DNA of 63,999 bases, counting the filler, from Acidimicrobiia bacterium (lineage in GTDB: Bacteria > Actinomycetota > Acidimicrobiia > Spongiisociales > CAZKJJ01), in assembly GCA_046759765.1 (NCBI GenBank). It is 24 parts of 24 records of this genome, joined end to end, with 100 filler letters (N's around TTAATTAATTAA, not from the genome) between each part and the next. Parts side by side here need not be neighbours in the genome. Positions count along the whole stretch, not along the records: positions 49,338 to 51,779 come from JBHICV010000263.1; 23 more parts are not named here. One strand, written 5' to 3'. A model generated the notes under the pieces. The model searched no databases and was not told the origin of the DNA. It saw nothing but the letters and a program-made list of their open reading frames with translations. Shown here one piece after another: positions 2,587-51,779 of the stretch. The position numbers were made by a program, and so were the translations under genes. Within the stretch, counting starts at the first letter, position 1, and every line of letters begins with the position of its first letter.

Positions 2587-2863
2587 CAAGTATTTGTCGC
2601 TACGGGAGGGACCATCTCGAGGCCATGGTTTCCCACATATTCCGTGATTATTTGTGGAACATGGGGATCCGAGAATGTCAGTAGGTTCATCGATACGATC
2701 TCTAACTACCTGACACTCTTCGGAGAACCCGCTCGCTCCCGAGCTTTCCGTAGCTTCCTGTACGGTCTGCGCTTGCGGATTCGGCCCCACCACTCCGCAT
2801 ACCCGTCCGTCGCGATCGTGAACCGGACTTTACTCTCTGAGACCCTGACAGATCCCCGAACGT

Positions 2864-2963
2864 NNNNNNNNNNNNNNNNNNNNNNNNNNNNNNNNNNNNN
2901 NNNNNNNTTAATTAATTAANNNNNNNNNNNNNNNNNNNNNNNNNNNNNNNNNNNNNNNNNNNN
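2864..2963. other. Artificial contig spacer (first of 23)
   Basis: N-run + TTAATTAATTAA (stops in all six frames) + N-run, recurring every 2.3-2.9 kb. Confidence 0.99.
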
Positions 2964-3190
2964 AAGACGCTCCATGACCCACTATCAGAGGGGACCACCC
3001 TTTCAGTCGAGTGTCAGAAACCCTCTCAAAACCCGCGCAACAGGCCTGTCATCGGCCAGTCGCAGGGCCCATGTCCGGTTCGCCAGGAGCCCGACGCCCA
3101 CCCCTAGAACTTGGCTCTGGGCAAGGGAAAACAGCCGAAATGGCAACGAAATGAGAACGAAATGAAAGGGTTGTCATCCACAATCGCAGG

Positions 3191-3463
3191 ATGCATCAGC
3201 TCGAGCCGTTGTTCTCCGCGAAGGACCTCGCCGAGTTTCTCCACGTGCCCATTGCCACCATCTACGCCTGGAGGTACCGGGGCGAGGGCCCTCCCGGATT
3301 CCGTGTCGGCCGGCACCTCCGCTACCGCTGGAGCGATGTCGCGGATTGGGTCAGCAGCCAGCTCGAGCGCTCGGGGCGGCGCCCCGATGCTGCTGCGCCG
3401 GCCAGGGCTAGAGTCGCAAGCCGAAGGGATACGTCGGTGGCGAGAAACACTGATGGCGAGTAG
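3191..3463 (+). CDS. Excisionase / AlpA-MerR-like HTH DNA-binding protein
   Basis: LFSAKDLAEFLHVPIATIYAWRYRGEGPPGFRVGRHLRY; directly upstream of the integrase. Confidence 0.9.
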   Translation: MHQLEPLFSAKDLAEFLHVPIATIYAWRYRGEGPPGFRVGRHLRYRWSDVADWVSSQLERSGRRPDAAAPARARVASRRDTSVARNTDGE

Positions 3464-4628
3464 TGCGATCGATCGACGAAGCAGCGGCCGGTACCGAGCG
3501 AGATACCAGGGCCCCAACGGGAAGTGGCGATCCCGGACCTTCGACCGGAAGGTCGACGCCCAGCGTTGGCTCAACAAGGAGCTTGCCAACGTGGATCGGG
3601 GCGAGTGGGTGGACCCTCGCGCAGGCCGAATCACTTTCGAGGTCGTTGCCGAGCGGTGGATGGCCGGTCGCTCATCTCTGCGGGAGAGCACAAGGTCCCG
3701 GGATCGCTCACTCCTCAACTCACTCATCCTCCCTCGTCTGGCAAGCACGCCGTTGGTTGCGATCCGGCCTTCGGACCTCGAGGCCTTCATCGCCGATCTC
3801 CTCGCCGCTGGGAAGGCGCCCGCCACCATCCACAAGGTGTGGCAGATCCTGTCCGGCGTCTTGCGCCTGGCCGTCCGCGATCGTCTCATTGCATTGACAC
3901 CGGCGCGTGAGGTACGGCTTCCCAAGATCGAGGTCGAGGAGCCGAGGGCACTGACCGTTGACGAGGTGATGCAACTCGCCGACGCAATCGATCCCCGGTA
4001 CCGGACACTCGTCTGGGTCGGCGCATTCGGCGGACTGAGGCTCGGAGAGCTCGCCGGGCTCCAGGTCGATGACTTCGATCCTCTACGTCGCCAGCTACGC
4101 GTGCGGCGCACCATCTCCGATGTACGCGGCCGACTCGTGGAGGGTCCCCCTAAGACACCGAAGGGCATCCGCACTGTGACTCTGCCGCGATTCATCGCCG
4201 ATGAGTTGGTTGCCCACCTCGCCAAGCGCGGAACGGTGACACCGCGTGACTGGATCTTCCCGGCGCCCCAGGGAGGCCCACTGCGTCGCACTGGATGGGT
4301 CCGGCGCTATTGGAGACCCGCGTTGAAGGCGGCAGGCGTCGAGGAAAACCTCGGCACCCACACCCTGCGTCACTCCCAGGTGGCCCTTCTCATCGCTCAG
4401 GGCGAACACCCGAAGGTGATCGCCGACCGCCTCGGACACACCTCGGTGAGGACGGTTCTCGACGTCTACGGGCATCTCTACGACGGTGCCGACGAGGCCG
4501 CCGCGGACGCACTCCAAGAACAAATCGCGTCCTATTCGCGTCCTGGGCGCGTCCCAGACCAGGTCGTCGAGTTACCTACCCGCGACAGAAACCTGCCCGG
4601 ACCAGGCCTTTTGCCTCGTGGGCGTTGA
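3453..4628 (+). CDS. Tyrosine recombinase / phage-type integrase
   Basis: GLRLGEL, HTLRH, LGHT, VYGH catalytic motifs; N-terminal arm-binding region; start at ATG 3453 rather than the track start 3111. Confidence 0.95.
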   Translation: MASSAIDRRSSGRYRARYQGPNGKWRSRTFDRKVDAQRWLNKELANVDRGEWVDPRAGRITFEVVAERWMAGRSSLRESTRSRDRSLLNSLILPRLASTPLVAIRPSDLEAFIADLLAAGKAPATIHKVWQILSGVLRLAVRDRLIALTPAREVRLPKIEVEEPRALTVDEVMQLADAIDPRYRTLVWVGAFGGLRLGELAGLQVDDFDPLRRQLRVRRTISDVRGRLVEGPPKTPKGIRTVTLPRFIADELVAHLAKRGTVTPRDWIFPAPQGGPLRRTGWVRRYWRPALKAAGVEENLGTHTLRHSQVALLIAQGEHPKVIADRLGHTSVRTVLDVYGHLYDGADEAAADALQEQIASYSRPGRVPDQVVELPTRDRNLPGPGLLPRGR

Positions 4629-4692
4629 CGGACTCGAACCGCCGGCCTCTTCCTTGTAAGGGAAGCGCTCTTGCCATCTGAGCTAAACGCCC
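4619..4692 (-). tRNA. tRNA-Val(TAC)
   Basis: Cloverleaf: GGGCGTT/AACGCCC acceptor, CTTCC-CTTACAA-GGAAG anticodon arm, TTCGAGT T-loop; CCA not encoded. Confidence 0.95.
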
Positions 4693-4826
4693 CTGGGTTC
4701 GCAGACCCTCCCCTAGATCGGCTCTGGTCTGTCTCTCGGAGCGGCCGATAGCGGAAGGTTACTCGGGACCACGTTGCCACCAGGCCCGCCGGGGTAGGGT
4801 CCACGTGCGCGCTCCAGGAGAACGAG

Positions 4827-5270
4827 ATGGCAGGGCAGAGCCAAAGGGACGACTGCAGGTTCTGCGCCATCGTGGATGGTGACCTCTCCGCGCACCTGGT
4901 GCTCGAGAACGAGACCTGCGTGGGGTTTCTTGACTCGAGGCCGCTCTTTCCGGGACATTGCCTGCTGGTGCCCCGGCCTCACTTCGAGACGCTGACCGAC
5001 CTTCCCGACCGGCTGATCGAGCCGTTCTTCGGCGACGCCCGGCTGCTGGCTCGCGCCGTGGAGGAGGCCATGGGCGCCGAAGGAACGTTCGTGGCTCTGA
5101 ACAATCGGGTCAGCCAAAGCGTCCCGCATCTCCACGTCCACGTCGTGCCGCGGCGGAAGGGCGACGGCCTGCGCGGCTTCTTCTGGCCACGCACCAAGTA
5201 CACCGACGAGGAGGAGATCAAGCAGGTTCAGCAGGCGCTGCGGGCCGCGGTCGCCAAACTACAGGAGTAA
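4827..5270 (+). CDS. HIT family hydrolase
   Basis: CRFC near the N-terminus; QSVPHLHVHVVPR histidine triad. Confidence 0.93.
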   Translation: MAGQSQRDDCRFCAIVDGDLSAHLVLENETCVGFLDSRPLFPGHCLLVPRPHFETLTDLPDRLIEPFFGDARLLARAVEEAMGAEGTFVALNNRVSQSVPHLHVHVVPRRKGDGLRGFFWPRTKYTDEEEIKQVQQALRAAVAKLQE

Positions 5271-5346
5271 CCCCACCTTCCGGCAGGACCCCGGTCTCAT
5301 AACTACGTCGCAACGCCTCGTCGGGGTCGGCGAGCCCCCTCTTGAT

Positions 5347-5812
5347 TCACACGGTCCCGAGCGAGAGCTTGTGGGCGGCCTCGTCGACCAGGGCGCCGAA
5401 CAGCCGCTCGGCCGTCATCTGCTCCGGTTCCGGATACTCCGGGTGCCACTGAACCCCCCACAGGGGCCAGCCGTCATCTTCGGGCTCGACGGCTTCGATC
5501 ACCTCGTCCTCCGCCCACGCCACCGGCCGCAGGCCGGCCCCCAAGCTCCGTACCGCCTGGTGGTGCGAGGAGTTGACCGGCACCCGGGTGGCACCGAACA
5601 GACCAGCTAATCGCGAGTCGGGGAGGAGGCGGATATGGTGGCCCGCCACCGACTCCCCCGTGGTTTCACGATGCGCCACCCCGTCGCCGACCTCGGAGGA
5701 GATATCCAGGATGAGGTCCCCGCCGAGGGCGACGTTCACCACCTGGATGCCGCGACAGATCGCCAACAGCGGCAGCCCGCGGTCCCGTGCCTCATGGGCG
5801 AGGCCGATCTCG
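5347..5812 (-). CDS. Peptidase C26 / gamma-glutamyl-GABA hydrolase family (5' truncated)
   Basis: AICRGIQ nucleophile elbow, VNSSHHQAV, GVQWHPE. Confidence 0.9.
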
Positions 5813-5912
5813 NNNNNNNNNNNNNNNNNNNNNNNNNNNNNNNNNNNNNNNNNNNNTTAATTAATTAANNNNNNNNNNNNNNNNNNNNNNNNNNNNNNNN
5901 NNNNNNNNNNNN

Positions 5913-6035
5913 CTTGCGGACTCCGTCTCTCCCGAGCAGTGCAACGTCTCGGCATTGACATTCGTGTGGGTATGCACACCGGCGAGATCGAAAAGCGAAA
6001 CGGCCAAGTCGGTGGGATAGCGGTGCACATAGCCG
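5913..6035 (+). pseudogene. Adenylate/guanylate cyclase C-terminal fragment
   Basis: LGIDIRVGMHTGEIE...VGGIAVHIA, after which similarity is lost (no AARV). Confidence 0.6.
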
Positions 6036-6163
6036 GCTCTCCACCCTCAAAGGCCCGATCTTCGGATCGGTCATTCCCCGAACCCGCCCCCACAACAGAC
6101 ACGCCGTGCCAATGTGCTGACTTCACCAGGTCACCTGCGGATCCCTCACCAAGGTCTCGTTCT

Positions 6164-6200
6164 TGTCCCTGTCGGATTGTATGATCGAACATGTGTTCGA
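6164..6200 (+). promoter_or_regulatory. LexA (SOS) box plus RecA-NDp/PafBC-like promoter
   Basis: TCGAAC-ATGT-GTTCGA at 6185-6200; TGTCCC-N10-TA-N3-T at 6164-6185. Confidence 0.75.
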
Positions 6201-6453
6201 CGATTCTGAGTTGATTGCCGACGGTCTGGATCGGATGGATCCGGGCCCTGAGCTGGCCGCGGTGCTGTCGTCCATTGACGTCCGGGAGCTATCGGTTCAG
6301 GACCTGATCGTGGTCTTGAACGCGCGTCGGCGGATGAGATTGCACTACGAAGCGATCGCGATGGGCTGGACCTACCGGCGGCTAGAAAACGGCGACTACC
6401 TCTGGACCACCCGACTTGGACAGAAATACACCACCCACGGCCCACCGCCGTAG
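6193..6453 (+). pseudogene. Internally deleted DUF222/HNH (13E12-like) protein
   Basis: N-terminal MDPGPELAAVLSSID...LS joined directly to the C-terminal GWTYRRLENGDYLWTTRLGQKYTT tail typical of DUF222-HNH proteins. Confidence 0.6.
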
Positions 6454-6486
6454 TCGAGCGCGACCGGCTCTCGGTATTCTCGGTGC

Positions 6487-7143
6487 ATGGCCATCCGGGT
6501 CGTCCTGGCCGAGGACAGCTACCTCATGCGGGAGGGAATCACTTCCCTGTTGGAGGTTGACGATTCCTTGGAACTGGTCGCCGCCTGTGCGAACTTCGAC
6601 GAGCTGATCGAGGCGGTTGACGAGCACCGGCCTGACGTCGTCATCACCGACATTCGGATGCCACCAACGCAGACCAACGAGGGCATCAGGGCCGCTCATC
6701 TCATCCGGGAGCGCTATCCGGGGACCGGCGTCGTCGTGCTGAGTCAGTATGCCGAGCCCGAGTACGCAGTTGCGCTGTTCGAGGAAGGCTCCACAGGCCG
6801 GGCCTACTTGCTCAAGGAGAAGGTCTCTGATCTCGAGCAGTTGAAAACTGCTATTGACGAGGTTCGTGGCGGCCGTTCGGTCGTCGATCCCGATGTTGTT
6901 GACCTGCTCGTGGCCGCCCGCAGGGAATCGATCCTGGACCGGCTGACCAACCGGGAAATGGAGGTTCTGGCTGAGATCGCCAAAGGGCGGAACAATGCCG
7001 GCATTGCGGACGCACTCTCCATATCGGAGAGAGCGGTGGAGAAGCACATCAGCTCGATCTTTACCAAGCTGGATCTGTCCCACGAAGAGGACACCCACCG
7101 GCGCGTGAAAGCGGTCCTGCTCTATCTGTCGGAGAGCTCCTAG
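6487..7143 (+). CDS. NarL/LuxR family response regulator
   Basis: REC domain (AED, DIRMP) + LTNREMEVL...HTH. Confidence 0.95.
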   Translation: MAIRVVLAEDSYLMREGITSLLEVDDSLELVAACANFDELIEAVDEHRPDVVITDIRMPPTQTNEGIRAAHLIRERYPGTGVVVLSQYAEPEYAVALFEEGSTGRAYLLKEKVSDLEQLKTAIDEVRGGRSVVDPDVVDLLVAARRESILDRLTNREMEVLAEIAKGRNNAGIADALSISERAVEKHISSIFTKLDLSHEEDTHRRVKAVLLYLSESS

Positions 7144-7517
7144 TGGCCGTCCGCGTATTGATAGTCGACGACCAGCCCCCCTTCCGAGACGCGGCGCGAA
7201 TGGTGGTGGAAATGACCCATGGGTTCGAAGTCATCGGGGAGGCGGAGTCCGGGGAAGAAGGCGTAGAGCTTGCCGCCACGCTGCGCCCCGATCTCGTACT
7301 GATGGATGTCTATCTGCCCGGCATCGACGGTCTCGAGGCCACACGTCAAATCACAAGTGCGGAAAGTCCGACTCGCGTCCTGGTCATGTCCACCCATGAG
7401 TCAGATGAGTTCGCCAAGGCCGCCATGGAGGCAGGTGCGATTGCCTTCGTTTCGAAGTCACAGTTCGGAATTGATGAACTCGCATCGGCGTGGGCTCAGG
7501 TCGCCGACGCCGGTTAA
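7143..7517 (+). CDS. Single-domain response regulator (REC)
   Basis: VLIVDD, LMDVYLPGIDGLEAT, K of FVSK. Confidence 0.92.
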   Translation: MAVRVLIVDDQPPFRDAARMVVEMTHGFEVIGEAESGEEGVELAATLRPDLVLMDVYLPGIDGLEATRQITSAESPTRVLVMSTHESDEFAKAAMEAGAIAFVSKSQFGIDELASAWAQVADAG

Positions 7518-8743
7518 CGAACAGGAACCCAGCCTCTTACGGTGGTGCCGCGACCCGGCCCAGAGTCGATCGTCAGCGCGCCTCCGGCGGCATCAAGGCG
7601 GTCGCTCATGCTCGGGATTCCGCTCCCTTCGCCGACTAAGTTCGGATCAAAGCCAGTGCCGTCGTCGACCACCTCGAACCCCAGCTGGTCCCCATCGTCG
7701 CGAAGCTGCACCGCTGCGGACGAAGCGTTGGCGTACTTGGCCGTGTTCTGTAGCGCCTCCAGAATCGAGAAGAACACGGCAGTCTCCACGTCCCTCGAGT
7801 AGCGGCCAACGGCCTCCGCTTCGATCGTGACGGGAAATGCCGCCTTGTCGGCTTCGGCTGACACGGCCGGTACCAGGCCATCGGCCTCGAGCAGCGACGG
7901 GTACACCCCCCGGGCGAAATCTCGTACCGATTGGATCGCCTTTCCCGCATCGTCTTCAAGCTGACCGAGCACCTCGAAGGACTGGTCGGCTTTGGCACTT
8001 TCGGCCTGAGCCTTCACCACCCCGAGCTTCACTTTGACCGCCACCAGGTCCTGCTGAGGACCCATATCGAGATCGCGTTCCAGATCGCGTCTTGCATCGT
8101 CCGCGGCCGCCAGTATGCGCTCCCGCGAGGAGGCGAGCTGGGTCACCTGATCGCGCAGGTCATCGGTCAGTCGCGCATTGCGCAGAGCCAGCCCCAGACC
8201 GCCAGCCAGGTTCTCGACGAGTTCCTGTTCGGTAGGCGCGATCGTTGCACCGCGACTCGCCACCAGCGACAACCCGCCGAGCAGCTCGCCGTCGTGCTCG
8301 ACCGGCACGGAGAAGGCAGCGTCGGGATCGCTCCACTCCCCGTCGCCTCTTATGGGGATTGCTTCGGCGGGGCGCTCGTCTTCGGGCCATCGGGCTGCAG
8401 GCCGTATCTCGCCCCCAACTGCGGTCCACAGGGTCGCCCCTGTTGCCCCGGTGCCGTCGACGATCAGGCGAGGAATTCGCTGCAGCATCTCGTCATCGCC
8501 TTCAGCAGTTGCCGCCCGTTGGGAGAATCGGGCCAAGACCTCATAGGGGGTGGCTCGCTCTCCGTATACCAGTCGGTTGGCCCAGCGTTGCAGCCGTGAC
8601 CTCACCGGTTCGAACAGGAGAGCTACTAACGCGGTGGCGCCGATCGCCAGAGCCAGATTGGGCTCATCGCCTCCACCGGCGAGGTTGCCCACGCCGACCA
8701 CAATTGCCACGTACACCGCGGTGATGAAGATGGCCAGGGCGCC
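7514..8743 (-). CDS. Membrane GAF-domain sensor histidine kinase, HisKA_3 type (5' truncated)
   Basis: RRDLERDLDMG (the H-box His appears replaced by Asp), EALQNTAKYA, DDGTGF, GRGTTV. Confidence 0.88.
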   Translation of the reverse strand, partial: GALAIFITAVYVAIVVGVGNLAGGGDEPNLALAIGATALVALLFEPVRSRLQRWANRLVYGERATPYEVLARFSQRAATAEGDDEMLQRIPRLIVDGTGATGATLWTAVGGEIRPAARWPEDERPAEAIPIRGDGEWSDPDAAFSVPVEHDGELLGGLSLVASRGATIAPTEQELVENLAGGLGLALRNARLTDDLRDQVTQLASSRERILAAADDARRDLERDLDMGPQQDLVAVKVKLGVVKAQAESAKADQSFEVLGQLEDDAGKAIQSVRDFARGVYPSLLEADGLVPAVSAEADKAAFPVTIEAEAVGRYSRDVETAVFFSILEALQNTAKYANASSAAVQLRDDGDQLGFEVVDDGTGFDPNLVGEGSGIPSMSDRLDAAGGALTIDSGPGRGTTVRGWVPVR

Positions 8744-8845
8744 NNNNNNNNNNNNNNNNNNNNNNNNNNNNNNNNNNNNNNNNNNNNTTAATTAATTAAN
8801 NNNNNNNNNNNNNNNNNNNNNNNNNNNNNNNNNNNNNNNNNNNGT

Positions 8846-11673
8846 GGAAAGATATGGAAACCACGGCTGGCAATCGTGCTGCTGATGGCCATGCTGTTAA
8901 TGTCGCTCGTGCCGATCCCGTTGGCATCGGCGACAGAAATAAGCGCCATCGCGCCCAGCTCAGGAGTCGTGGGTACACAAGTGTCCGTGTTTGGAGAGAT
9001 CGACACCCTTGGTGGACCATTCGAGGTCTTCTTTGACGGCGATTCGAAGGTAAGCGATTCGGCCGCAGCCAATTCGAGGAGCGTGTTCGCCCAGTTTAAC
9101 GTGCCCCCCGCCGTCGGAAGCGACGCCGGCGAGGACCACGTGATTCTGCTGGCAGACCTGACCACAGGGACGTCTTCGACCGCCATTTTCAGGGTCATTA
9201 CCGACCGTAGCATCGCTGCCTCTCCCGCCCGGATAGGAGGGGAAGGGTTGCCAACAGACATTACCGTGTCAGTGACTGGTGGAGTAGCCTCCACCGCGTA
9301 CGCGTTTGATGTTGCCGTCACCGACCCGGAGGGAGCGGCTCACGCCTCTCCCCTTGGTAGCTTCAGCTTCACGACCGGTCCGGCCGGTTCTGGAAGCGCG
9401 TTAGCCCCCTATCCTGGAGCCTTCTCGGCGAGCCCGAACACCGATTTCGTCGGCACCTACAGCATGGTCGCAGATGAGACTGCTCCCGGGGACATCCCAG
9501 GGGCCACGAGCGGGAGTTTCCGTGTGGGTCTGACGAACCTCGAGGTCTATGAGCGGTTTGACAAGGTGGAGATCCGGAGCTCCGGTTGGGCAGCCGGGGA
9601 GGAGGTCACCATCGACATCAAGAATTCGGCCGGGCAGTCCGTCACGATCGGAAACTCGCCTTATCCGGCCGACTTTGTGGCGGCCAGTGCCGTGTTCAAC
9701 GAGACAGACGCACTGCCGCGGGACTTCCCGACGGGAACCTACACCGTGACCGTGGTCAACTCAACGGGCACAGGCACGGTAAAGAGCCCGGCCGACATCC
9801 AGAACTTCGACGTTGTGGCTGACAACGACATCGCAGTCTCCGTAGTCGCGCAGCCTGCCACGTCATTCGAACGGACCGAAGAAGCCACGGCGAAGTTGAG
9901 CATCACCTACCCGGATGGCAGTCCCTTCGATCCAGACAGTCTCGGATCGATCAGCATCAGCGTGTTCAACGCCAGCGCGAAGATTGCGGACCTCTCCTTG
10001 AGCTCGGCAGACTTCAATGCGCTGACCGCGAGTGAATGGAACGCCACCTTCAAGATTCCAAAGGGGGCCGACCTCGAAGCACACAATCTGACGGCCGAGG
10101 CAGGTGCGGTGGTCGATCTGGACGGCAACAGCGGTCCGTCCGCCGACGTATCATCCAACGATTTCGATGTGGTGGCGGCTATCCTCGACGTCGAGATCAC
10201 CGGTCAATGGGACGCCGGCGACGAGTTCAACCGCACGGCAGCCGTCGCGATGAAGCTCAAGGTGCGCTACCCCGACCTGTCGTTCTATACCCCAGCTGAC
10301 CTCGGATCGCTCGCAGTAAACGTCACCCTCGTAGGTGTTGCATTCGACATCGCGAATCTGACGCTGGGCGCCAGCGATTTCGACGCGGCCACGAACAACT
10401 GGACGGCGGAGTGGATCATCCCGTTCGACGCGGCGTTGAGCGACGCGTACAACTTCCGCGTTAGAGCGGGCAAGGTCGCAGACGAGTTCGGAAACGACAA
10501 TACGGCCGACAGTATATCCAACGCATTCACCGTGGTCGAGGTCACCATACTGGTGCCCGAGATCGCAACTGATCGGGCCACCTACGAGCGGGAGGAGCTG
10601 GTGTTCGTGTTCTTCCGCGGCAGCTATCTCGACGGCAGCGCGGTGAGCACGGGGAGCGCGGACCTCACGCTGACGGATCCTGCCGGGGACTCGGCACCAC
10701 TGACAGCCACATTCTCGTCTGTTCGCAACCGATTCGAGGCGAGCTTCTTCCTGACGGTCCTTGACCCCATCGGGGTCTGGAGCGTGAGCATGGCCAGCTT
10801 CGCCCTCACGGATGACGCGGGCAACGATGGTCCGAACGTGACTCGTTCAACCACCTTCGAGGTCGTGAGGGCCGTCGAGGTCCTCCAGGTCGAAGCCGAC
10901 GCCGGGTCGCTCCACTTCCGGGGAGAGATCGCCGAGTTCTACGTCCTGACGGCGAACCGCGGCGCACCCATCGACGTAACCTTCGATGCCGCGGACCTCT
11001 ACCGGCCCGATGGCCTCGTTGAGCAGCTCAACGCAGTCCGGATCGCCGCCGGCATCTCTAGGATCCTCTATCCGATCCCCGCCGACGCGCCCGTGGGCAC
11101 CTACACCCTCGTGGTTCGCGTCAGCGCGATCTTTGAGCAGACGGAGGGCAAGGGGGTAACCATCGCATCGTTCCGGATCAGCGACACGCTGAGCGGCTTC
11201 GTCGTTGACATTAGTGCCGGCCTAGCACGCATCGAAACAGCCCAGGGCGAGATTGTGGTGGATCTCGCCGCCATCAACGCCCGACTCGCCAGCATTGAGA
11301 ACGGCATAGCAAACATCGAAACCGACGTGGGCCTCATCCAAGCGGACCTCGCCGCCATCAGGCCAGTGATCACCCAGATCAGCAGTGGCGTGGCCACTAT
11401 CCAGACCGACGTAGGCGAACTTCAGGTGGAAGTCGCCGCCCTCAACCCCATCGTGACCGAGATCCAGGGAGACATGGCCACAGTCAAGACCGATGTCGGG
11501 ACGCTCCGCGGACAAGTCACCGGGCTCGAGGGAGACATCGCCCTCATCCAGACGAACATAGGCGACATAAGGGCCGACATCTCGGGGGTCGCGGACCTTT
11601 CCCCGGCGGTCTCAAACATCCTGACCGTGCTGTACATCGTTACGGCACTGGCCCTGATCGCAGCCCTCGCCGC
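8846..11673 (+). CDS. Large secreted, C-terminally anchored surface protein with Ig-like repeats and coiled coil (both ends truncated)
   Basis: Signal peptide, repeated YPDGS/YLDGS beta modules, IxTDVG heptad repeats, C-terminal TM helix; frame is open from the contig start. Confidence 0.8.
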
Positions 11674-11773
11674 NNNNNNNNNNNNNNNNNNNNNNNNNNN
11701 NNNNNNNNNNNNNNNNNTTAATTAATTAANNNNNNNNNNNNNNNNNNNNNNNNNNNNNNNNNNNNNNNNNNNN

Positions 11774-12107
11774 CGTATTTGCCCCTCTCGTGTGGGACTT
11801 CTACTGGATGCTCGGATTCGCCGCCTTGGCATGGCCTGCGGTAACCGGGATCGGGGGCCGCGCATACCGAGCATTGGTGGTGGGTGCCTTAGCTATGACC
11901 ACGGTTAGTACTGGTGCGTTCCACCTCCTTACGTTCATCCCCCCAAGCATCAGAAATTGGTCGCTGCTCGCCGTGCCTGTGCTGGCTCCGATGATCGCAG
12001 CCATCGGACTGTGGACGGTCGCGGCCAGGGCAGGTTCTTCCGCCAGTAGGACGGAACCAGAAGCTGCGCTTCCCGGCCTCAGGCACCCCGGAAGGCTCGA
12101 AAGCTAA
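11774..12107 (+). CDS. Membrane protein C-terminal fragment
   Basis: Three hydrophobic segments, 5' truncated. Confidence 0.5.
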
Positions 12108-12215
12108 CTCCCCATACCCCAGCGAGACAGTGTTCCTGTGAGGAGTTTCAAGACGGCAAGGGCGCCTATCTGGCCCTGCAGTCGGTCCAAAATCGCGGAG
12201 ACGGACGGCGATCAT

Positions 12216-12386
12216 CTAATGCCCCCTGTTCGCATCTCGCGTTCTCAGGGCTACGTCTCCGTCGCGTACATCAATCGAGACGGCTCCACAGTCCTCACAT
12301 ACGAGCCGGAGAATTCCGGCGCCAACCCTTTGAGCAGGGCCATAGAGGTGCTGTCCGTTCTTGCACGGTGTATTGGAACGGAGCAC
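12216..12386 (-). CDS. Possible small Cys/His-containing protein
   Basis: C...H...GAGILRLVCEDCGAVSID; start uncertain. Confidence 0.3.
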   Translation of the reverse strand: MLRSNTPCKNGQHLYGPAQRVGAGILRLVCEDCGAVSIDVRDGDVALRTRDANRGH

Positions 12387-12571
12387 GGCAACGGTCTTTA
12401 TCCGCCTGATGGGGTTCTCCTTGTTCAGACAGATCACAAGGAAGGGTTCGCCCCCACCGAGGTCCACTCCCAGCTACACAAGCTACTCAAAAGGGGGCGG
12501 GCTGCTACAAGGTATTCGCCTTCGGTGATAGGAGCTGAAACGGTCGACCAGTCGGTAGCCTCAGGCAGAGG

Positions 12572-13321
12572 ATGACTGTTGTGTATTCGGTCGTGCTTCT
12601 ACGCCACGGAGTGTCCACCTGGAATGGAGAGAATCGTTTCACGGGTTGGACCGATGTCGGCCTGACCGAAGAAGGTATCGCGGAGGCCCGGGCCGCCGGA
12701 AAGCTGATGGCAGCCGAGGAGATTTCATTCGACGTCGTCCACACTTCGATCATGCGCAGGGCGGTTGAGACGACCTTCCATGTATTGGACGAGATGGATT
12801 TGCTCAGAGTTCGGGTCGTCAAGAATTGGCGTCTCAACGAACGTCACTACGGCGCTCTGCAAGGGCTCAACAAGAAGGAGACCGCTAGTGAACACGGCTC
12901 GGAGCAGGTGTATCTGTGGCGAAGAAGCTATGACGTCCGCCCTCCGGCCCTAGACCTGGACGACGAGCGGCACCCGCGGTTTGACCCCGTCTACCAAGGC
13001 CTTCCGCCCGAGGTCTTGCCGTCAACTGAGAGCCTGGAGGACGTCTATGACCGAGTCGTTCCCTGGTGGCAGGACCATGTCATCCCGGACCTGCAGGCGG
13101 GTCACACCGTTCTGATAAGCGCGCACGGCAATAGCCTGCGAGCGCTGGTAAAACACTTCGACCAAATCCCGGACGAGGAGATCGCGACCTTCAACATTCC
13201 CACCGGTATCCCGTTGCTTTACGAGCTCGACGCTGGCTTTCAGCCGGTCTCGAGTCGCTATCTGGGAGATACGGAGGCTGCCGCGGCTGCGGCCGAAGAG
13301 GTGGCTCGCCAGGCGGGATGA
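12572..13321 (+). CDS. gpmA: 2,3-bisphosphoglycerate-dependent phosphoglycerate mutase
   Basis: LRHG, NRFTGWTDV, LNERHYGALQG, AHGNSLR, NIPTGIP. Confidence 0.97.
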   Translation: MTVVYSVVLLRHGVSTWNGENRFTGWTDVGLTEEGIAEARAAGKLMAAEEISFDVVHTSIMRRAVETTFHVLDEMDLLRVRVVKNWRLNERHYGALQGLNKKETASEHGSEQVYLWRRSYDVRPPALDLDDERHPRFDPVYQGLPPEVLPSTESLEDVYDRVVPWWQDHVIPDLQAGHTVLISAHGNSLRALVKHFDQIPDEEIATFNIPTGIPLLYELDAGFQPVSSRYLGDTEAAAAAAEEVARQAG

Positions 13322-13382
13322 GCTTTACCTAGCTGACGGCCTTGGCCATACTGTGATCGAACCCTCAGGAGACCTTTGAGCC

Positions 13383-13622
13383 ATGTCGATCGTGGCGGCG
13401 ATTGTTGTCGTAATCCAGATTCTCACCTCGATTCTGTTGGTGCTGTTGATCCTGTTGCACTCGGGTCGAGGAGGTGGCCTTTCGGATATGTTCGGTGGGG
13501 GAATGGGCCCGGTCGGTATGGGCGGCTCCACCGTGGCGGAGAGAAACCTCGATCGCTACACGATCATCATCGGCCTGGTTTGGCTGACCACGACGGTCGC
13601 GCTCTCCTTCATCATCACCTGA
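13383..13622 (+). CDS. secG: Preprotein translocase subunit SecG
   Basis: LLHSGRGGGLSDMFGGG...ERNLDRYT; followed by tRNA-Leu(GAG), the conserved synteny. Confidence 0.95.
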   Translation: MSIVAAIVVVIQILTSILLVLLILLHSGRGGGLSDMFGGGMGPVGMGGSTVAERNLDRYTIIIGLVWLTTTVALSFIIT

Positions 13623-13661
13623 GGGAACCCGCAGTCGCAGGGGTATAGTGACCGGTCCCAC

Positions 13662-13748
13662 GTCGGAGTGGCGGAACTGGCAGACGCGCTAGGTTGAGGG
13701 CCTAGTGCCCTACTAATGGGCGTGAGGGTTCAAATCCCTCCTCCGACA
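13662..13748 (+). tRNA. tRNA-Leu(GAG)
   Basis: GTCGGAG/CTCCGAC acceptor, CTAGG-TTGAGGG-CCTAG anticodon arm, long variable arm, GTTCAAATC. Confidence 0.96.
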
Positions 13749-14210
13749 CCCTCGTTGACTACACGCGGCCGGGACTCGATGAGCACCCGGCCGTCTTGGT
13801 GGTAGGTGACCTCGATCCCCATTTCGGCATAGACGGCGGCCTTGTCGACGGGGTCGGCCTGGGCGAGGGTTGCGGTTATGTCCCGCAGGCTGATGACCAG
13901 CGCTCTGATGTCTTCCTTGGTGAGCCTGGTGGTGGGCTTCACACCCAGGAGGGTCTGGAGGCGCCGGCGCTCCTGTGTAGTTTCCGCGATCCATCGACCC
14001 ACCGTCGCCCGGGCGTCTGGTTCATTACGAACGATGGTTCGGTAAGCGTCGAGCTCCGAGTCGAGTTCAGCAATGCGCTTTCGGATCTCCTGGCGTCGGG
14101 CCTCATCGTCGGGATCCGGTTGAGCAGCGTCGGCGAGCGTTTGGCAGGTGCCGTCTAAGTGTTCGGTGTCGAAGAGCTCGGCCAGCCAGCTGTCGAGTCC
14201 GGGTAGCAGC
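13730..14210 (-). pseudogene. C-terminal fragment of a large serine recombinase reading into the tRNA-Leu 3' end
   Basis: Coiled coil + ADPVDKAAVYAEMGIEVTY + GVGGGI tail; homologous to 23177-23788. Confidence 0.8.
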
Positions 14211-25923: not shown

Positions 25924-26006
25924 ATAACGCCGCTCAACGTGGCTGCCCAGCCGGCCCAGGCCAAGCCTGTCGAATTCGTCCTCAGCTCACGGTCCGTAAT
26001 TTGCAT
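25924..26006 (-). CDS. 5' end of a membrane protein, paralog of 50457-51068
   Basis: MQITDRELRTNSTGLAWAGWAATLSGV vs MRVTDRELRTSLRGLAWAGWAATLSGV. Confidence 0.7.
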
Positions 26007-26074
26007 GTCTCTCCAACTTCCCCCGAGTAAGAGTGACTCCACACCGTTCCGAAATCGTTACGCAACCTCGCCCA

Positions 26075-26107
26075 CCCGCCCAGAACTATCAGGCACATAT
26101 GCGCTCC
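26075..26107 (+). repeat. dif-like site (degenerate)
   Basis: CCCGCCCA-gaac-TATCaGGCAC-ATATGCGCTCC. Confidence 0.65.
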
Positions 26108-26858: not shown

Positions 26859-26875
26859 CCCGCCCATATCGGCAT
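26859..26875 (+). repeat. dif-like half site
   Basis: CCCGCCCATAT-CGGCAT. Confidence 0.65.
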
Positions 26876-26949
26876 CCACTTCGAGGAGCGGGTCAGGCCA
26901 AGGTCTACGAGCTCGGGGTATGCTGCTGGTATCGAGCGAGATGAAGGAG

Positions 26950-27729
26950 ATGATGATGCTCGATCTGTCGTCTGTCGATCTTGACCTGCTGGTCGTGGCC
27001 CTTGAAGACCACTCCTACGACTCGTCGTGGTGGTTCGATCCGACAACGGGCGCGGTGGAGTACTGCTCGATCGATGAGGATTCTGAGGAGTTCGAGGCAC
27101 GAGACCTTGTGCCGGTGGAGCCCGAGGATCCGCGCGAGGCTTATCAGGACATGGTGGACTTCACCTCGTTGGTTAGCGACGCCCGGGCCAACGACTTTCT
27201 GACTCGTGCCCTTCAAGGGCGCGGGGCGTTTCGTCGCTTCAAGGACACCTTGTTCGACTATCCCGAGCTGCGCCAGGAGTGGTTTACCTTCCACGATCGA
27301 AGGATGCGGCAACGAGGAATCGAATGGTTAGCCGACCGGGAGCTCATCACCGAAGATGCAGCGCGTCGAGCGCTTACCGATCTGGGCGAAGAACCCGAGA
27401 GTGTCGGCCCGCTGGGCGCTATGAGGTTGGCCGAGCTGGCGGCGGCTGGATTACGTCACCTATATGGTGGTCGGTTGGTGCGGGTCGTGCTGTATGGGTC
27501 GCAGGCTCGAGGTGATGCCGGACCTGATTCGGATATCGACCTGCTGGTGGTACTCCGAGAGATGGAGTCATCCTGGGACGAACTGCGCCGAATGGACGAA
27601 CTCCTATGGCGGCTATCGTTCGAACACGGGGTGACCCTGTCGGCTCTTCCCGTAACCGAGGACCAGTTGGATCATGCGGGCGAGCCGGTGCTCATCGAAG
27701 CACGCTCACACGGTGTAACGGTTGAGTGA
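26950..27729 (+). CDS. UPF0158 domain fused to a minimal nucleotidyltransferase (MNT)
   Basis: YQDMVDF...ALQGRGAFRRFKD...EWF (UPF0158) + LYGSQARGDAGPDSDIDLLVV (MNT). Confidence 0.88.
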   Translation: MMMLDLSSVDLDLLVVALEDHSYDSSWWFDPTTGAVEYCSIDEDSEEFEARDLVPVEPEDPREAYQDMVDFTSLVSDARANDFLTRALQGRGAFRRFKDTLFDYPELRQEWFTFHDRRMRQRGIEWLADRELITEDAARRALTDLGEEPESVGPLGAMRLAELAAAGLRHLYGGRLVRVVLYGSQARGDAGPDSDIDLLVVLREMESSWDELRRMDELLWRLSFEHGVTLSALPVTEDQLDHAGEPVLIEARSHGVTVE

Positions 27730-28106
27730 GCGCGGTAGAGGAGGGCATGGCCCGCTGCCGAGAGGAGATCGCCGCCGCCAAGGTCCTGACCAGAGAAGGG
27801 TTCGCGGCTCAGGCGGTCAGCCGTTGCTATTACGCCGCGTTCTACGCAGCCGAAGCCGCCCTCCTTAGTCTCGGTGAGTCCAGGTCGAAACACGCTGGAC
27901 TGATCTCCGCTTTCGGCCAGCTCGCTGTCAAGCGGGAAGGCCTCGATGAACGGACCGGTCGTCTGCTGCGCTCCCTCTACGACCGCCGCAGCCACGCCGA
28001 CTACCACCTGGGCCCAGTACCTCTGCAGGAGGCTGTTCAAGCCATCGAGGACGCCGAGACCGTGGCCAACCTCATCGGCCACTGGCTTGCGCAAAGGTCT
28101 CCATAA
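27726..28106 (+). CDS. HEPN domain protein
   Basis: AVSRCYYAAFYAA, SKHAGLI, RSHADY; GTGA coupling to the MNT gene. Confidence 0.9.
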   Translation: MSAVEEGMARCREEIAAAKVLTREGFAAQAVSRCYYAAFYAAEAALLSLGESRSKHAGLISAFGQLAVKREGLDERTGRLLRSLYDRRSHADYHLGPVPLQEAVQAIEDAETVANLIGHWLAQRSP

Positions 28107-33896: not shown

Positions 33897-34172
33897 GGGC
33901 AAGGAGATGGCCGAACACGCCACCTTCACCATCGACACCGGAGTGCAGATCTACTTCTGCGACCCCAAGAGTCCCTGGCAGCGAGGCAGCAACGAGAACA
34001 CCAACGGCCTGCTCCGCCAATACCTCCCCAAAAAGACCGACATGGCTGTCCTCACCCAGGCTCAACTCGACGCTATCGCTCACTCCCCCAACACCCGGCC
34101 TCGACAAACCCTCGAATGGGAGACACCATTACGAGTACTCGCCCGGGCGTTGCAATGACCCCTTGAGACCGC
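33897..34172 (+). mobile_element. IS30 family element, 3' end (transposase C-terminus to 34158 and right end)
   Basis: [42 protein letters not shown]. Confidence 0.92.
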
Positions 34173-34393
34173 ACCCATTCTCGAGTGAGAACGCCCGAAC
34201 CACCTGCCCGCACCGAACGGCACATCGGCGCTCTTACATCGGTCCGTTTCTCGGAGGCAATCGGGCCGCACCGAATGCCGGTTATCGCGCAGTCAAGTGG
34301 GCGGATGGCTGGTGCGCCTGTGGGCGATCTGGACGCGGTGGATCCGACACCCGGGGCTGTCGGATGCTAGCTCCGGGGTAATCTCTAGCACCG

Positions 34394-39593: not shown

Positions 39594-39621
39594 ACCGCCA
39601 ATATCGGCACATATGCGCTGC
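39594..39621 (+). repeat. dif-like site (full)
   Basis: ACCGCCAATAT-CGGCAC-ATATGCGCTGC. Confidence 0.8.
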
Positions 39622-39843: not shown

Positions 39844-40896
39844 TCAGGCGGCTTGGGGCAGGTGTTTGTAGGTCTGTCGAGCCACGTAACGTTTGAGACA
39901 TCGCATGATCTCCGAAGTTGATTTCCCTTCGGCTCTCCGTCTGGTCACATAGCTTCGGGTTTGGGGGTGGCTTCTCATCCGGGTCAACACGATCCGGTAG
40001 AGGGCCGCGTTGGCGTGACGGTCTCCTCCCCGGTTCAACCGATAGCGAACCACCTTCCCTGAGGAGGCGGGGATAGGCGCAGTGCCGCATAGATGAGCCC
40101 AACCAGACTCTGAGCTGATCCGCTCAGGGTTGTCACCAGCTGCTACCAGCAGGCTGGCGGCGTTGTCCGGGCCGATCCCGTGCAGCTCCAACAGCGACGG
40201 TGCTGTCTGTTCGAGGAGATCGACGAGCATCCGGTCGATCTGTCCCATCTCTTGGTTGAGCGATCGGACACGTCGGGCCAGGTTCCGGATCACCAGATAG
40301 GTCGTATATATGACCGGATCTGGTGAGCGGGGTCGCATCGCAGCAGCCTCGGCGACGAGCCCGGTCTTATAGCGGTCTTTGAAACGGCTCCGGATCGGTT
40401 CCGGTGCGGTGAACACCAGATGACGGAGCTGGGTGAGGGACTGGATCCGCTGCTCCCGAGCTGAACGGCGAGCAACTAGCAGCACCCGCATCTGCTCCAC
40501 CGGTCCGTCCCGGCCCTTAGGGGTCACCGAAGCCGACCCCGACAGAGCCGCCCTGGCAGCTGCTACTGCATCGGTGGGATCCGACTTGCCCTTCCTCCGT
40601 CGCAGCTGCCGGTTAGGCCTATCAACCTCAACCGTCTCCACATCTTGGTTTAGGAGGAAACGGGCCAAACCGACCCCATAAGAACCGGTGCCCTCCACGC
40701 CTATACGGGACAGCGGACCGAACGACATCAGCCAGCCCACCAGCTCCTCAAACCCAGCCCGGTTAGTAGCGAACGACTCGATCCCCAACAGACCGCCGTT
40801 CTGATCCACCGCCGCAGCCACATGCACATCCGAATGGGTATCCACCCCACCCGTCACACTCACCACCGACATAACCGACCCTCCTGACATAGACAC
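39844..40896 (-). CDS. IS110 family transposase/recombinase
   Basis: GVDTH, GVEGTGSYG, KSDPTDA (DEDD); GIGP, PASSGK, RLNRGGDR, RCLKRYVAR. Confidence 0.96.
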   Translation of the reverse strand: MSMSGGSVMSVVSVTGGVDTHSDVHVAAAVDQNGGLLGIESFATNRAGFEELVGWLMSFGPLSRIGVEGTGSYGVGLARFLLNQDVETVEVDRPNRQLRRRKGKSDPTDAVAAARAALSGSASVTPKGRDGPVEQMRVLLVARRSAREQRIQSLTQLRHLVFTAPEPIRSRFKDRYKTGLVAEAAAMRPRSPDPVIYTTYLVIRNLARRVRSLNQEMGQIDRMLVDLLEQTAPSLLELHGIGPDNAASLLVAAGDNPERISSESGWAHLCGTAPIPASSGKVVRYRLNRGGDRHANAALYRIVLTRMRSHPQTRSYVTRRRAEGKSTSEIMRCLKRYVARQTYKHLPQAA

Positions 40897-49237: not shown

Positions 49238-49339
49238 NNNNNNNNNNNNNNNNNNNNNNNNNNNNNNNNNNNNNNNNNNNNTTAATTAATTAANNNNNNN
49301 NNNNNNNNNNNNNNNNNNNNNNNNNNNNNNNNNNNNNAT

Positions 49340-49462
49340 GAGCTCGGACCTCCCCCTAGCGATGAGCTTCTCGAACTCGTTGCTCTGGTGGCGCGACGTC
49401 GCCGGCAACGCGAAGAACTCGAACGTCAACAACCAGGCATCGGACTCGCCCTAGGCCGGTAG
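49340..49462 (+). CDS. MobF relaxase extreme C-terminus (paralog of 51880-52296)
   Basis: LGPPPSDELLELVA...ELERQQPGIGLALGR* matches the relaxase end in contig 20. Confidence 0.7.
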   Translation, partial: ELGPPPSDELLELVALVARRRRQREELERQQPGIGLALGR

Positions 49463-49489
49463 TCAAACCACAGAGGGTGGCTTACGAAT

Positions 49490-49517
49490 CAGCGAGAGAA
49501 TGCCGGTTATGGGCGTT
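49490..49517 (-). repeat. dif-like site, relaxase-adjacent type
   Basis: AACGCCCATAA-CCGGCA-TTCTCTCGCTG. Confidence 0.7.
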
Positions 49518-49547
49518 GGTCGCGAGCGAGCCGTATCGAGACGTTGA

Positions 49548-50051
49548 TCATTCAGTGACCGTGAAATCCCCTCCGAAGTGCGTGATCCTTTCCTCGATGA
49601 GGGCACAAGTCACAACGTGGACACCCGGCGGGAAGTGCCGTGTCGCCTCAAACGATTCCCCTGCCGGGAGACCTTGTCTGTAAAACGTCGGGTGAATTTC
49701 TGATGTCGGTTCCGCGGAGGGGTTCTCTGCAAGAGCGTCTGCAACTTCCTGGGCGGTTATGCCCTCGTCGAGCCGCCACAACCCGAGGGTGCTGCTCCCT
49801 GGACTCTCATTGTGCAGCACGATGTCTATGTTGCCCGCCGACAGTTCACTAGGCCCTTCATAAGTGCAGTTCTCGCCATCGAAGGTCACTTGTAGAACAA
49901 CAGGCGCAGAGGTTGTGGTCGTTTCTTGAACTGCCGTTGTGATCGTCGTTTCTTCTACCGTCGTTGTTGTGGTGTCTTCTGTCGTCCCATCAGAACAAGC
50001 GGCCAAGCCCAAGCCGAGGAGGATGCCACTAGCAACCAGACGTTTCTTCAT
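49548..50051 (-). CDS. Lipoprotein with Thr-rich linker and cupredoxin-like beta domain
   Basis: LAAC lipobox, TTTTT linker, VTFDGENCTYEGP...PPGVHVVTC. Confidence 0.8.
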   Translation of the reverse strand: MKKRLVASGILLGLGLAACSDGTTEDTTTTTVEETTITTAVQETTTTSAPVVLQVTFDGENCTYEGPSELSAGNIDIVLHNESPGSSTLGLWRLDEGITAQEVADALAENPSAEPTSEIHPTFYRQGLPAGESFEATRHFPPGVHVVTCALIEERITHFGGDFTVTE

Positions 50052-50084
50052 CGGCAGCGACCCTACCCTTTCCCAACATCGACG

Positions 50085-50112
50085 GCCGAACATATCGACA
50101 CATACGCGCTAC
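50085..50112 (+). repeat. dif-like site (variant)
   Basis: GCCGAACATAT-CGACAC-ATACGCGCTAC. Confidence 0.7.
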
Positions 50113-50432
50113 CCCGGGAGCTAGCCATAGCCGGTGGATCGGAATGTCGGATTACGGACATCCCGGTCTGCCAAGCACGTGCAGCAGTGTTGGTAGAAGT
50201 GAGGTGATCGATAATGAGCTGCAAGATCATCGTTCGTGAGGGTCGCCAGCTTCGTATCCACATCGGACATGTGATCTCCTGGGGCCCCGACACGGTTCAC
50301 CTGCTCATTACCAGTCCCCAAGACCGCGCCGGACAGACCGAGATCATCGATCTCTCAAGGATTGTCAAGTACGAGCGTCTGGCAGCCTGACGCCGCCCAC
50401 CGCGCTCAGAGGACAATGCAGCAGGACAGTCA

Positions 50433-50460
50433 CCCGCCCATATCGGCACATATGCGCTAG
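50433..50460 (+). repeat. dif-like site (full, consensus-like)
   Basis: CCCGCCCATAT-CGGCAC-ATATGCGCTAG; right arm overlaps the stop codon of the adjacent gene. Confidence 0.85.
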
Positions 50461-51068
50461 TCGGGGATCGTGGAGGGCTGTTTTCTCGGGGCGCGGATTA
50501 GGAGGATTCCGATTGCTATCCAGGTCAGCCCGAATGCGAAGGAAATCAGGGTGCCCTGCAGCCAGGGAAACGCTGTGAACAGCCCAAGACTGAGGGGGAT
50601 TCCTGATCCCCGAGGTAGGAGACCGACCAGGAGGGCTCTCCGTCCGTAGACGATCGTGGCCACTGCCCCAAGAGCTGGCCCCAAAGCAGTAAGGGCTGCG
50701 CCTGGAAATGAGATCGAGAGGGTGGTAGAACCCCACACGGTCAATCCCAGCGTCCACACGATTCCGATAGCGGCTCCTGTCCAGCCCACTATCGCTGCGT
50801 ACCGGCTGAGGGTGGCCACCCAACCGTGGCCAACTCGAACCAGTGCGAGGGCTAGCACGATCAGGGCAAGTGCGATCACTAGAGAGCGGGTGGAGTCGTA
50901 CCAGGAGAGCCCTAGGGGTGTCCGTTGGTAATCGAAAGAGGTGGTTCCGTGCGCAGCCAGGTAGTGGACCCATACCACCAACCAAATAACACCGCTCAAC
51001 GTGGCTGCCCAGCCGGCCCAGGCCAAACCTCTCAAACTCGTTCGCAGCTCGCGGTCCGTGACTCGCAT
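50457..51068 (-). CDS. Hypothetical multi-pass membrane protein
   Basis: About 6 TM segments; GGAG RBS; paralog start at 25924-26006. Confidence 0.75.
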   Translation of the reverse strand: MRVTDRELRTSLRGLAWAGWAATLSGVIWLVVWVHYLAAHGTTSFDYQRTPLGLSWYDSTRSLVIALALIVLALALVRVGHGWVATLSRYAAIVGWTGAAIGIVWTLGLTVWGSTTLSISFPGAALTALGPALGAVATIVYGRRALLVGLLPRGSGIPLSLGLFTAFPWLQGTLISFAFGLTWIAIGILLIRAPRKQPSTIPD

Positions 51069-51134
51069 GTCTCTCCAGCTGCCCGAGTAAGAGTAACTCC
51101 ACACCGTTCCGAAATCGTTACGCAACCTCACCCA

Positions 51135-51151
51135 CCCGCCCATATCGGCAC
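51135..51151 (+). repeat. dif-like half site
   Basis: CCCGCCCATAT-CGGCAC. Confidence 0.75.
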
Positions 51152-51304
51152 GTCGAGGATTGGGGTGGCATTGGCGGGAGCCACTCAGTGTGGCGGTCAA
51201 GACGGGCCGGGACCGAAGCGTTCGTCCAGTTGCTGCAGGGACCCGACTTCGCAGTGCGGTCGGGAGGAAGTGGGCTGTGATGCAGCCCGTTAGCCTCGAG
51301 ACCG

Positions 51305-51779
51305 ATGGGGTACGAGTCGCTGGGGCGGGTTCTCGCGGAGATGGCGGCAGACGATCAGGACCGTGCCGACATGGCGGAGGCAGTAGCCGATTGGCTCACC
51401 GCCGGCGAGGGGACGGAGACGATCGACCTCGCCAGCGTACAACGCTTTGTGTGGTACGAGCTGCCCGTGAAATGGATGGGGAACGGGGGTCTGCGCCGGC
51501 GGACGCTCGAGGCGGCCGCTGAGCTCTTCGACCGGCTCGGCATGGCTCGCTACGCGGAAGTGTGCCGCAGCCCGGTGACCTCCGAGATCCACCACGCCTA
51601 CGTCGAATCTCAGGAGAAGGGCATCAAGGCGTTTCAACGGGCGAACCGTCGCTCAGGCATCGATCCGCCCGATCTGGACAACTTTGTATGGGGCGACGTG
51701 ATGGGTCTTGAGGAGGCCGTCGCACGCCGCGCCGCCGAGCGGGCGCTGGAGGAGGCGATGACGGTGGGTCGGTTTGCCC
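51305..51779 (+). CDS. Hypothetical protein (3' truncated)
   Basis: Protein-like ORF (VQRFVWYELPVKW...SGIDPPD). Confidence 0.7.

Follow-up and report, generated by a model that had tools for sequence, protein, structure and literature searches.

Integrons are the textbook device for gene capture and reshuffling, and their attC sites are folded structures of 57-141 bp with AAC/GTT cores. Gene modules bounded by shorter, dif-like sites are also known: the sites of the Acinetobacter pdif modules alternate in orientation, and integrative mobile elements exploiting Xer (IMEX) integrate at the chromosomal dif. Sites of this kind measure 28 bp, with a XerC arm and a XerD arm on either side of a 6-8 bp centre. 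In the quoted part of the IntegronFinder survey (PMC4889954), all Actinobacteria genomes are without complete integrons and the Alphaproteobacteria are without any integron elements. Here we analyse a candidate gene cassette at positions 50431-51151 of a 63,999-nucleotide stretch of DNA (the window) from an Acidimicrobiia bacterium, a member of the Actinomycetota (GenBank assembly GCA_046759765.1). The cassette, consisting of a 203-aa gene and a 64-bp leader, is probably one mobile unit of an integron-like array system. Our reading of the arrays as a whole is tentative: they may belong to a self-contained gene-capture system, independent of integrons, in which an Xer-derived recombinase acts on simple dif-like sites, often doubled into a four-arm composite, and whose cassette pool would be common to bacteria from sediments and vents that carry the labels Acidimicrobiia, other Actinomycetota, Gemmatimonadota, and Alpha- and Gammaproteobacteria. 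A description of this cassette system was not found in the searchable literature, including by the 16-nt core of the site as a string.

The cassette and its copies

The cassette lies on contig C263 (window 49338-51779), where the following features were delimited:

50431-50459, + strand: full recombination-type site, CACCCGCCCATAT-CGGCAC-ATATGCGCTA, an exact match to the genome-wide consensus; left arm (CA)CCCGCCCATAT, spacer CGGCAC at 50444-50449, right arm ATATGCGCTA
50457-51068, − strand: cassette gene, a 203-aa open reading frame (ORF) for a polytopic membrane protein of no named family
51069-51132, − strand: conserved 64-bp upstream region (5' leader), part of the cassette and kept in C263, C254:1-159 and C217:1-209
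51133-51151, + strand: half site forming the right boundary of the cassette, CACCCGCCCATAT-CGGCAC, followed by the unrelated GTCGAGG
50086-50111, + strand: degenerate site, CCGAACATAT-CGACAC-ATACGCGCTA, bounding the preceding unit on C263

The first-pass annotation had placed the gene between direct-repeat sites, with its stop codon in the right arm of the first, and both the sites and the ORF were recovered. Its description of the cassette as complete holds on the left, where the site is full, but not on the right, where only half a site is present: the 19 nt CACCCGCCCATATCGGCAC of the left site recur, and the right arm ATATGCGCT is replaced by GTCGAGG. The DNA to the right of this half site was unique among all sequence fetched. 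The stop codon TAG of the gene (CTA at 50457-50459) is the final triplet of the right arm of the full site. ORFs of at least 80 codons end at this TAG at 4 of 14 sites in the source genome and at 18 of 108 sites elsewhere, compared with 6/28 and 47/216 in control frames; there being no enrichment, a general stop function of the arm was rejected, and the overlap of stop and site in the cassette is therefore incidental. Between the degenerate site and the full site, the sole candidate gene is a 58-aa ORF (50214-50390, + strand) with a GC content at third codon positions (GC3) of 0.71.

The cassette protein had no match in Pfam or NCBIfam, and the Atlas returned unnamed actinobacterial clusters only, with a DUF4386 lead at 0.80; a BLASTP comparison with the DUF4386-like protein encoded beside one of the cassette copies (see below) was not significant. 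None of 596 pattern matches in metagenome_contigs was confirmed as a homologue, and a single weak match (25% identity) was obtained in the 400 other genomes of our class-level sample, which comprises 401 Acidimicrobiia genomes, including the source genome and the unpublished G293. Because homologues of the protein were not found elsewhere beyond this weak match, the comparison of flanks rests on three copies in the source genome.

The source genome is fragmented (308 contigs, 2.73 Mb, 92% complete, 2.4% contamination), and the window consists of 24 of its contigs, each separate and 2.1-2.9 kb long, spaced by N44-TTAATTAATTAA-N44 linkers. The contigs are ordered by length and the linkers carry stops in six frames; an Rfam scan of the window yielded two tRNAs and nothing else. 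Exact overlaps of 54-55 bp join the contig ends C117/C254, C254/C214 and C274/C172, so that the assembly graph can be walked across repeats.

A recurrence of about 157 bp of the cassette at 25924 had been noted at first pass and is borne out, with C263:1649-1805 matching C254:1-159 at 89.3% identity over 159 bp by BLAST. As the extent of the paralogy, the figure of 157 bp has to be abandoned: contig C254 begins with its base 1 at window position 25924, which makes the left limit a contig end and not an end of homology, which continues on C117. Indeed, C254:1-55 is identical to C117:55-1 (reverse strand), a 55-bp assembler k-mer overlap, and C117:598-1 matches C263:1109-1703 at 87.1% over 598 bp. 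The C117-C254 path thus carries a full second copy of the cassette with about 88% nucleotide identity, homologous from 50446 to 51142 and reaching 51151 if extra C254 bases are allowed. A third, partial copy, representing the 5' part, was found at C217:1-209 (90.4% identity) and ends in a perfect full site. The gene copies differ at 47 third, 20 first and 14 second codon positions and by one 3-bp indel that keeps the frame, indicating that the gene is real and under purifying selection; the part of the protein encoded on C117 is 86% identical to the cassette protein. The paralogous locus in the window comprises the following:

25924-26070, − strand: 5' end of the paralogous gene together with its leader, the remainder of the gene lying on C117, outside the window
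26071-26105, + strand: right-hand site of the paralog; additional bases disrupt its left arm and spacer (CCGCCCA-GAAC-TATCAGGCAC), and its right arm ATATGCGCT is intact
26860-26875, + strand: half site closing the DUF4386-like cassette, CCGCCCATAT-CGGCAT

The last half site is followed by two adjacent + strand ORFs (26930-28106) with nucleotidyltransferase/HEPN features of the toxin-antitoxin type, assigned by motifs only.

On the left the two full copies share nothing past GCAC, and on the right nothing past GGCAC; both breakpoints fall inside the spacer of the site, and the earlier statement that homology ends at the site thus stands for both flanks of the C117-C254 versus C263 alignment. 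The proposal that members of one cassette family have been placed beside different neighbours is supported on the right, where three neighbours were found (a unique + strand gene on C263, the DUF4386-like gene on C254 and another cassette on C217), with the qualification that on the left the different neighbour of the paralog, on C117, is the end of an IS30-family element inserted into the site and not another cassette.

Further evidence that the site is a recombination boundary, as first suggested, came from four runs (X1-X4) of one study labelled hydrothermal vent metagenome, which may include the source sample and were analysed as Logan contigs, not reads. The summed contig depth of the bin with the full site was 353-464 in X1-X3, compared with 0-40 in four neighbouring bins. 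Numerous loose ends, differing from one another, begin within 50427-50432, 50457-50466 and 51144-51151, and contigs of both X3 and X4 start at 51146, the first base of the spacer. The depth peak and the varied loose ends mark the site as a junction with many partners, and the contigs of the four runs join many sequences at the site edges. No piece in X1-X4 spans a site with 31 nt on each side, and neither cassette context is accordingly confirmed at read level.

Sites, arrays and insertion sequences

The consensus of the site is a 26-bp core, CCGCCCATAT-CGGCAC-ATATGCGCTA, in which an asymmetric 6-bp spacer separates two 10-bp arms that form an imperfect inverted repeat. When 30 sites of the source genome were aligned with their flanks, only the 26-28 bp core was common, the flanks being unrelated. 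A 25-mer of the site, allowing up to 3 mismatches, occurred 29 times in this genome and not once in a reversed control, and two half-site patterns gave 44 and 48 matches compared with 3 and 6 in the reversed genome. Among 209 distinct sites from other metagenome-assembled genomes (MAGs), every spacer base was kept in 192-205, with the outer arm bases variable, and two arm types, CCGCCCATAT and TAGCGCATAT, were each found in either position. In other loci, 104 of 336 sites have a second site after them, in most cases 24 nt further along, whose spacer is inverted (TGCCGG), resulting in a four-arm composite; in the source genome this arrangement was seen at only 1 of 28 sites.

The sites of the source genome share one orientation and are spaced at 0.5-3 kb, on C97, C287, C147, C217, C158 and other contigs. 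In G024, a genome of the same order but another family (6 contigs, 95% complete), they occupy three stretches adjoining tRNA genes, and the array genes have a GC3 of 0.67-0.79 versus 0.84-0.92 in the flanks. One locus of this genome (L001, on G024:C6) carries a 4.6-kb island (9128-13752) between 50-bp direct repeats of the tRNA-Ala(ggc) end; within the island are three cassette sites, an inverted-spacer site near the distal repeat and a remnant of an integrase (86 aa).

In the class-level sample, the site core with up to 1 mismatch was present at least 3 times in 8 of 401 genomes (46 matches in G385, 29 in the source genome, 14 in G218, 11 each in G024 and G222, and 3 each in G014, G156 and G311), whereas the reversed control gave one match over all genomes. 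An exact 23-nt site pattern had at least 143 matching stretches in genome_contigs and at least 130 in metagenome_contigs, and among the matches listed the MAG titles name Acidimicrobiia, Actinomycetota, Gemmatimonadales/Gemmatimonadetes, Kiloniellales and Gammaproteobacteria; with contigs mostly short and binning liable to err, this spread of sites across phyla is unproven. In 24 mapped loci, 132 genes were called, including those for serine hydrolase, sulfatase, SnoaL, glyoxalase, adenylate cyclases, methyltransferase, PAP2 and isochorismatase; many are without a family, and none is a recombinase.

Many of the left-only and right-only sites result from insertion sequences (IS) that have entered cassette sites; the IS30 and IS110 families were assigned by eye from motifs. 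An IS30-family element adjoins the right arm on C274, C293, C257 and C96; these contigs show its terminal repeat, which resembles TGCGGTCTCAGGGGGTCATTGCAAC, and the C-terminal end of the transposase. The other end of the element adjoins the left boundary of the paralog on C117, and related IS ends are found on C97 and C197. The junction on C96 truncates a tRNA-island integrase gene. The insertions were located as follows:

C274:1-70, C293:90-160, C96:9229-9286, C117:600-760 and window 34149-34232 (C257): IS30-family ends at right arms
39595-39620, + strand: full site on contig C259, followed by a second, partial, inverted-spacer site that holds an IS110-family element
39844-40896, − strand: 350-aa ORF on contig C259, read as an IS110-family (DEDD) transposase

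A paralogous copy of the IS110-family element runs from C274 to C172 across their 55-bp overlap (81% identity over 1185 bp). A sequence on C259 and C274 with an apparent XerD arm, CCGCCCATAT-TGAWTCTC-TTATGTCAAGG, was considered as a chromosomal dif located by the arrays and ruled out, being absent from 40 relatives and corresponding to the end of the IS110-family element.

Candidate recombinases

The most likely array enzyme is a separate Xer-like recombinase, about 300 aa long. In three genomes of the same order as the source genome, G218, G156 and G014, a recombinase gene of this size is flanked, at the array origin, by sites of opposite orientation:

G218, contig C5: site (+) at 2673; recombinase gene at 2856-3746 (−); 11 sites (−) at 3839-11605; tRNA-Ala at 15056
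G218, contig C7: sites (+) at 14548 and 15037; recombinase gene; site (−) at 16202
G156: four sites (+); recombinase gene; two sites (−)
G014: sites beside a broken recombinase copy

One Xer-like family (PF02899 + PF00589) also adjoins a site in the metagenome loci L183, L219 and L224, and short C-terminal fragments of it lie beside sites in L011, L097 and L133. Among 8000 proteins scored, 3578 belonged to this family with E ≤ 1e-10; the best 120 clusters comprise proteins of 283-361 aa, 79-89% identical to the query and encoded mostly on 1-5 kb contigs. The family scores under the cut-offs for XerC, XerD, XerA and IntI, and the organism names given for its homologues are consistent with the Acidimicrobiia label of the source genome. 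It was detected in 27 of the 401 Acidimicrobiia genomes (a count that includes G293), namely in 4 of the 8 genomes with at least 3 core matches (G218, G385, G156 and G014) versus 23 of the 393 others, a contrast to which no statistical test was applied because related genomes are not independent.

We envisage that the tyrosine recombinase would bind both arms and cut at the spacer edges. Recombination between two sites in direct repeat would then excise the cassette as a circle with one rebuilt site, and the reverse reaction would insert the circle at any site of an array.

Other enzymes were considered. Eight integrase matches in the source genome, on C33 (684-1208), C54, C76, C96, C194, C227, C245 and C214, were rejected as the array enzyme: they are of the phage or tRNA-island type, 6 of the 8 adjoin tRNA genes, and four of the intact ones (C194, C245, C227 and C214) have an excisionase-like coding sequence and short CCCTTTCA-type repeats upstream, with no cassette sites. 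Contig C214, whose integrase is of this type, follows C254 by the 54-bp overlap. Large serine recombinases were likewise set aside, none being located near the arrays of G024. On C244 of the source genome, the window carries a large serine recombinase gene (1301-1741, − strand; 558-aa open frame), beside which no cassette site was seen. A second, shorter tyrosine recombinase family of 215-230 aa is a possible alternative enzyme. Its members at two loci, L210:1206-1895 and G024:C5:21691-22194 (L140), are 58% identical; in L210 the gene lies 1.2 kb from a cassette site, and the family is absent from the assembly of the source genome.

The arrays of the source genome and of G024 look orphan, resembling attC-site clusters that have no integron integrase (CALINs), since no Xer-like recombinase gene was found there. 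In the source genome they would be either truly orphan or served in trans, by an unbinned copy of the Xer-like gene or by the host XerC/XerD, for which XerC-like and XerD-like genes are present on C69 and C33.

Competing explanations and known systems

Several observations weigh against the reading as a mobile cassette of an array system with an Xer-like recombinase. The Xer-like family was not found in four array-bearing genomes (the source genome, G024, G222 and G311), and no tyrosine-recombinase ORF of at least 80 aa was present in the fetched flanks of 134 genome_contigs loci. In about 24 loci with recombinase homologues at 52-67% identity, from other families of the class, no site could be recognised in the vicinity. 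Neither a circular nor an empty-site junction was found in the Logan contigs; a single X1 joint, 50457->51131, is weak, with 21 nt on its shorter side, and differs from the product that excision should give. The strand of the cassette genes with respect to the site varies in the 24 mapped loci, unlike in most integron cassettes, whose genes are mostly co-oriented and transcribed from a promoter at the integrase end. With regard to the cassette itself, the half site at its right boundary means that the copy on C263 may no longer be excisable, and its copies, being on short contigs of one MAG, could stem from co-binned strains, so that their membership of a single genome is not proven.

The cassettes might instead be Xer-dependent modules comparable to dif modules and IMEX, with no dedicated enzyme and with the host XerC and XerD acting on the sites, so that the machinery for resolving chromosome dimers would move them. 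We regard this as unlikely but as a real alternative, because the arms resemble the XerC arms of the dif sequences given in the quoted part of PMC3025954. The layout is dif-like, with inner CATAT/ATATG arms around the 6-bp spacer; the G-type arm CGCCCATAT is similar to the XerC half of the dif predicted for Frankia alni, given in that part as CACGCCGATAA-TGCACA-TTATGTCAAGT (PMC3025954), and the T-type arm AGCGCATAT to the Escherichia coli XerC arm, given there as GGTGCGCATAA. Moreover, XerC-like and XerD-like genes are present in the source genome, and G024 has arrays yet only XerC/XerD-type candidates. However, both arms of the cassette site are XerC-like and no XerD-type arm (TTATGT.AA.T) is present, no connection of the arrays with the chromosomal dif was found, and a canonical dif was not found in the source genome, where the best match to the F. 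alni dif has 6/28 mismatches. The sites within arrays are directly repeated, unlike those of pdif modules, and it is a separate Xer-like paralogue that is linked to the sites in G218, G156, G014 and the six metagenome loci.

Two further explanations fail their defining tests. The sites could be palindromes resembling repetitive extragenic palindromic (REP) elements, with a structural or regulatory role and as IS targets, the breakpoints then arising by IS-mediated or homologous rearrangement at repeats instead of a site-specific exchange of cassettes. Each site is indeed an imperfect palindrome with a 10-bp stem and a 6-nt loop, and IS30-family and IS110-family elements are inserted into the sites, as IS elements are known to insert into REPs. 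This explanation is nevertheless very improbable: the sites group into a small number of islands of low GC3 instead of being scattered, and the most conserved part is the asymmetric spacer. REPs are usually species-specific, whereas the identical site sequence is found in MAGs with several phylum labels. The sites are also linked to a tyrosine recombinase gene, and a Y1/RAYT transposase (PF01797) was found in none of five genomes searched (the source genome G000, G024, G013, G001 and G019). The assignment to a classical integron or CALIN with unusual attC sites is still harder to sustain and can be given hardly any credence. In its favour, the co-oriented arrays separate mostly single accessory genes, the four-arm composites recall the R''-L''...L'-R' layout of attC, and IS elements target the sites much as IS1111-attC elements target the attC sites of integrons, of which the IS110-family insertion into a cassette site is reminiscent. 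Yet the best score on TIGR02249 in the same five genomes was 67.9 bits, and the array-linked recombinases scored 72-84 bits, against a cut-off of 265. The consensus CCGCCCATATCGGCACATATGCGCTA is without AAC/GTT cores (RYYYAAC, GTTRRRY), the genes have mixed orientation relative to the sites, and the crossover, which in attC falls at G|TT, maps here to the central spacer of a simple site, leaving one arm at each cassette end.

If the tentative reading is right, the independent capture system would fill the integron gap of Actinomycetota and Alphaproteobacteria: a second, mechanistically simpler cassette system with an Xer-type enzyme and 26-bp sites would explain a flexible gene pool in integron-poor lineages. 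Metagenomes from sediments and vents would also gain a large class of mobile genes that has so far gone unannotated; such arrays break assemblies and end as short contigs. The 16-nt core offers a practical marker for locating cassettes, and the recombinase with its site would be a compact pair and a candidate tool.

Compared with integrons, the arrays described here share the co-orientation of sites around mostly single, diverse accessory genes, the occurrence of copies in different contexts with breakpoints at the site, and, in G218:C5, a recombinase gene at the origin of the array that points away from it. Orphan arrays without a recombinase gene, as in CALINs, and IS elements in the sites are further shared features. 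The differences concern the enzyme, an Xer-like recombinase of about 300 aa that scores far under the integron-integrase cut-off; the site, a simple 26-bp core as opposed to a folded attC with AAC/GTT cores; and the recombinase gene, which is flanked on both sides by sites in inverted orientation. Moreover, the system is found in Acidimicrobiia, within a group for which the quoted part of PMC4889954 gives no complete integrons. With dif, lox and FRT, the cassette site shares the layout of arms around a spacer. In pdif modules and IMEX, short dif-like sites with a 6-bp centre likewise bound gene modules, and the arms of the cassette site are like those bound by XerC, but the present sites differ in forming direct repeats in long chromosomal arrays, in having two XerC-like arms and in being linked to a dedicated Xer paralogue.

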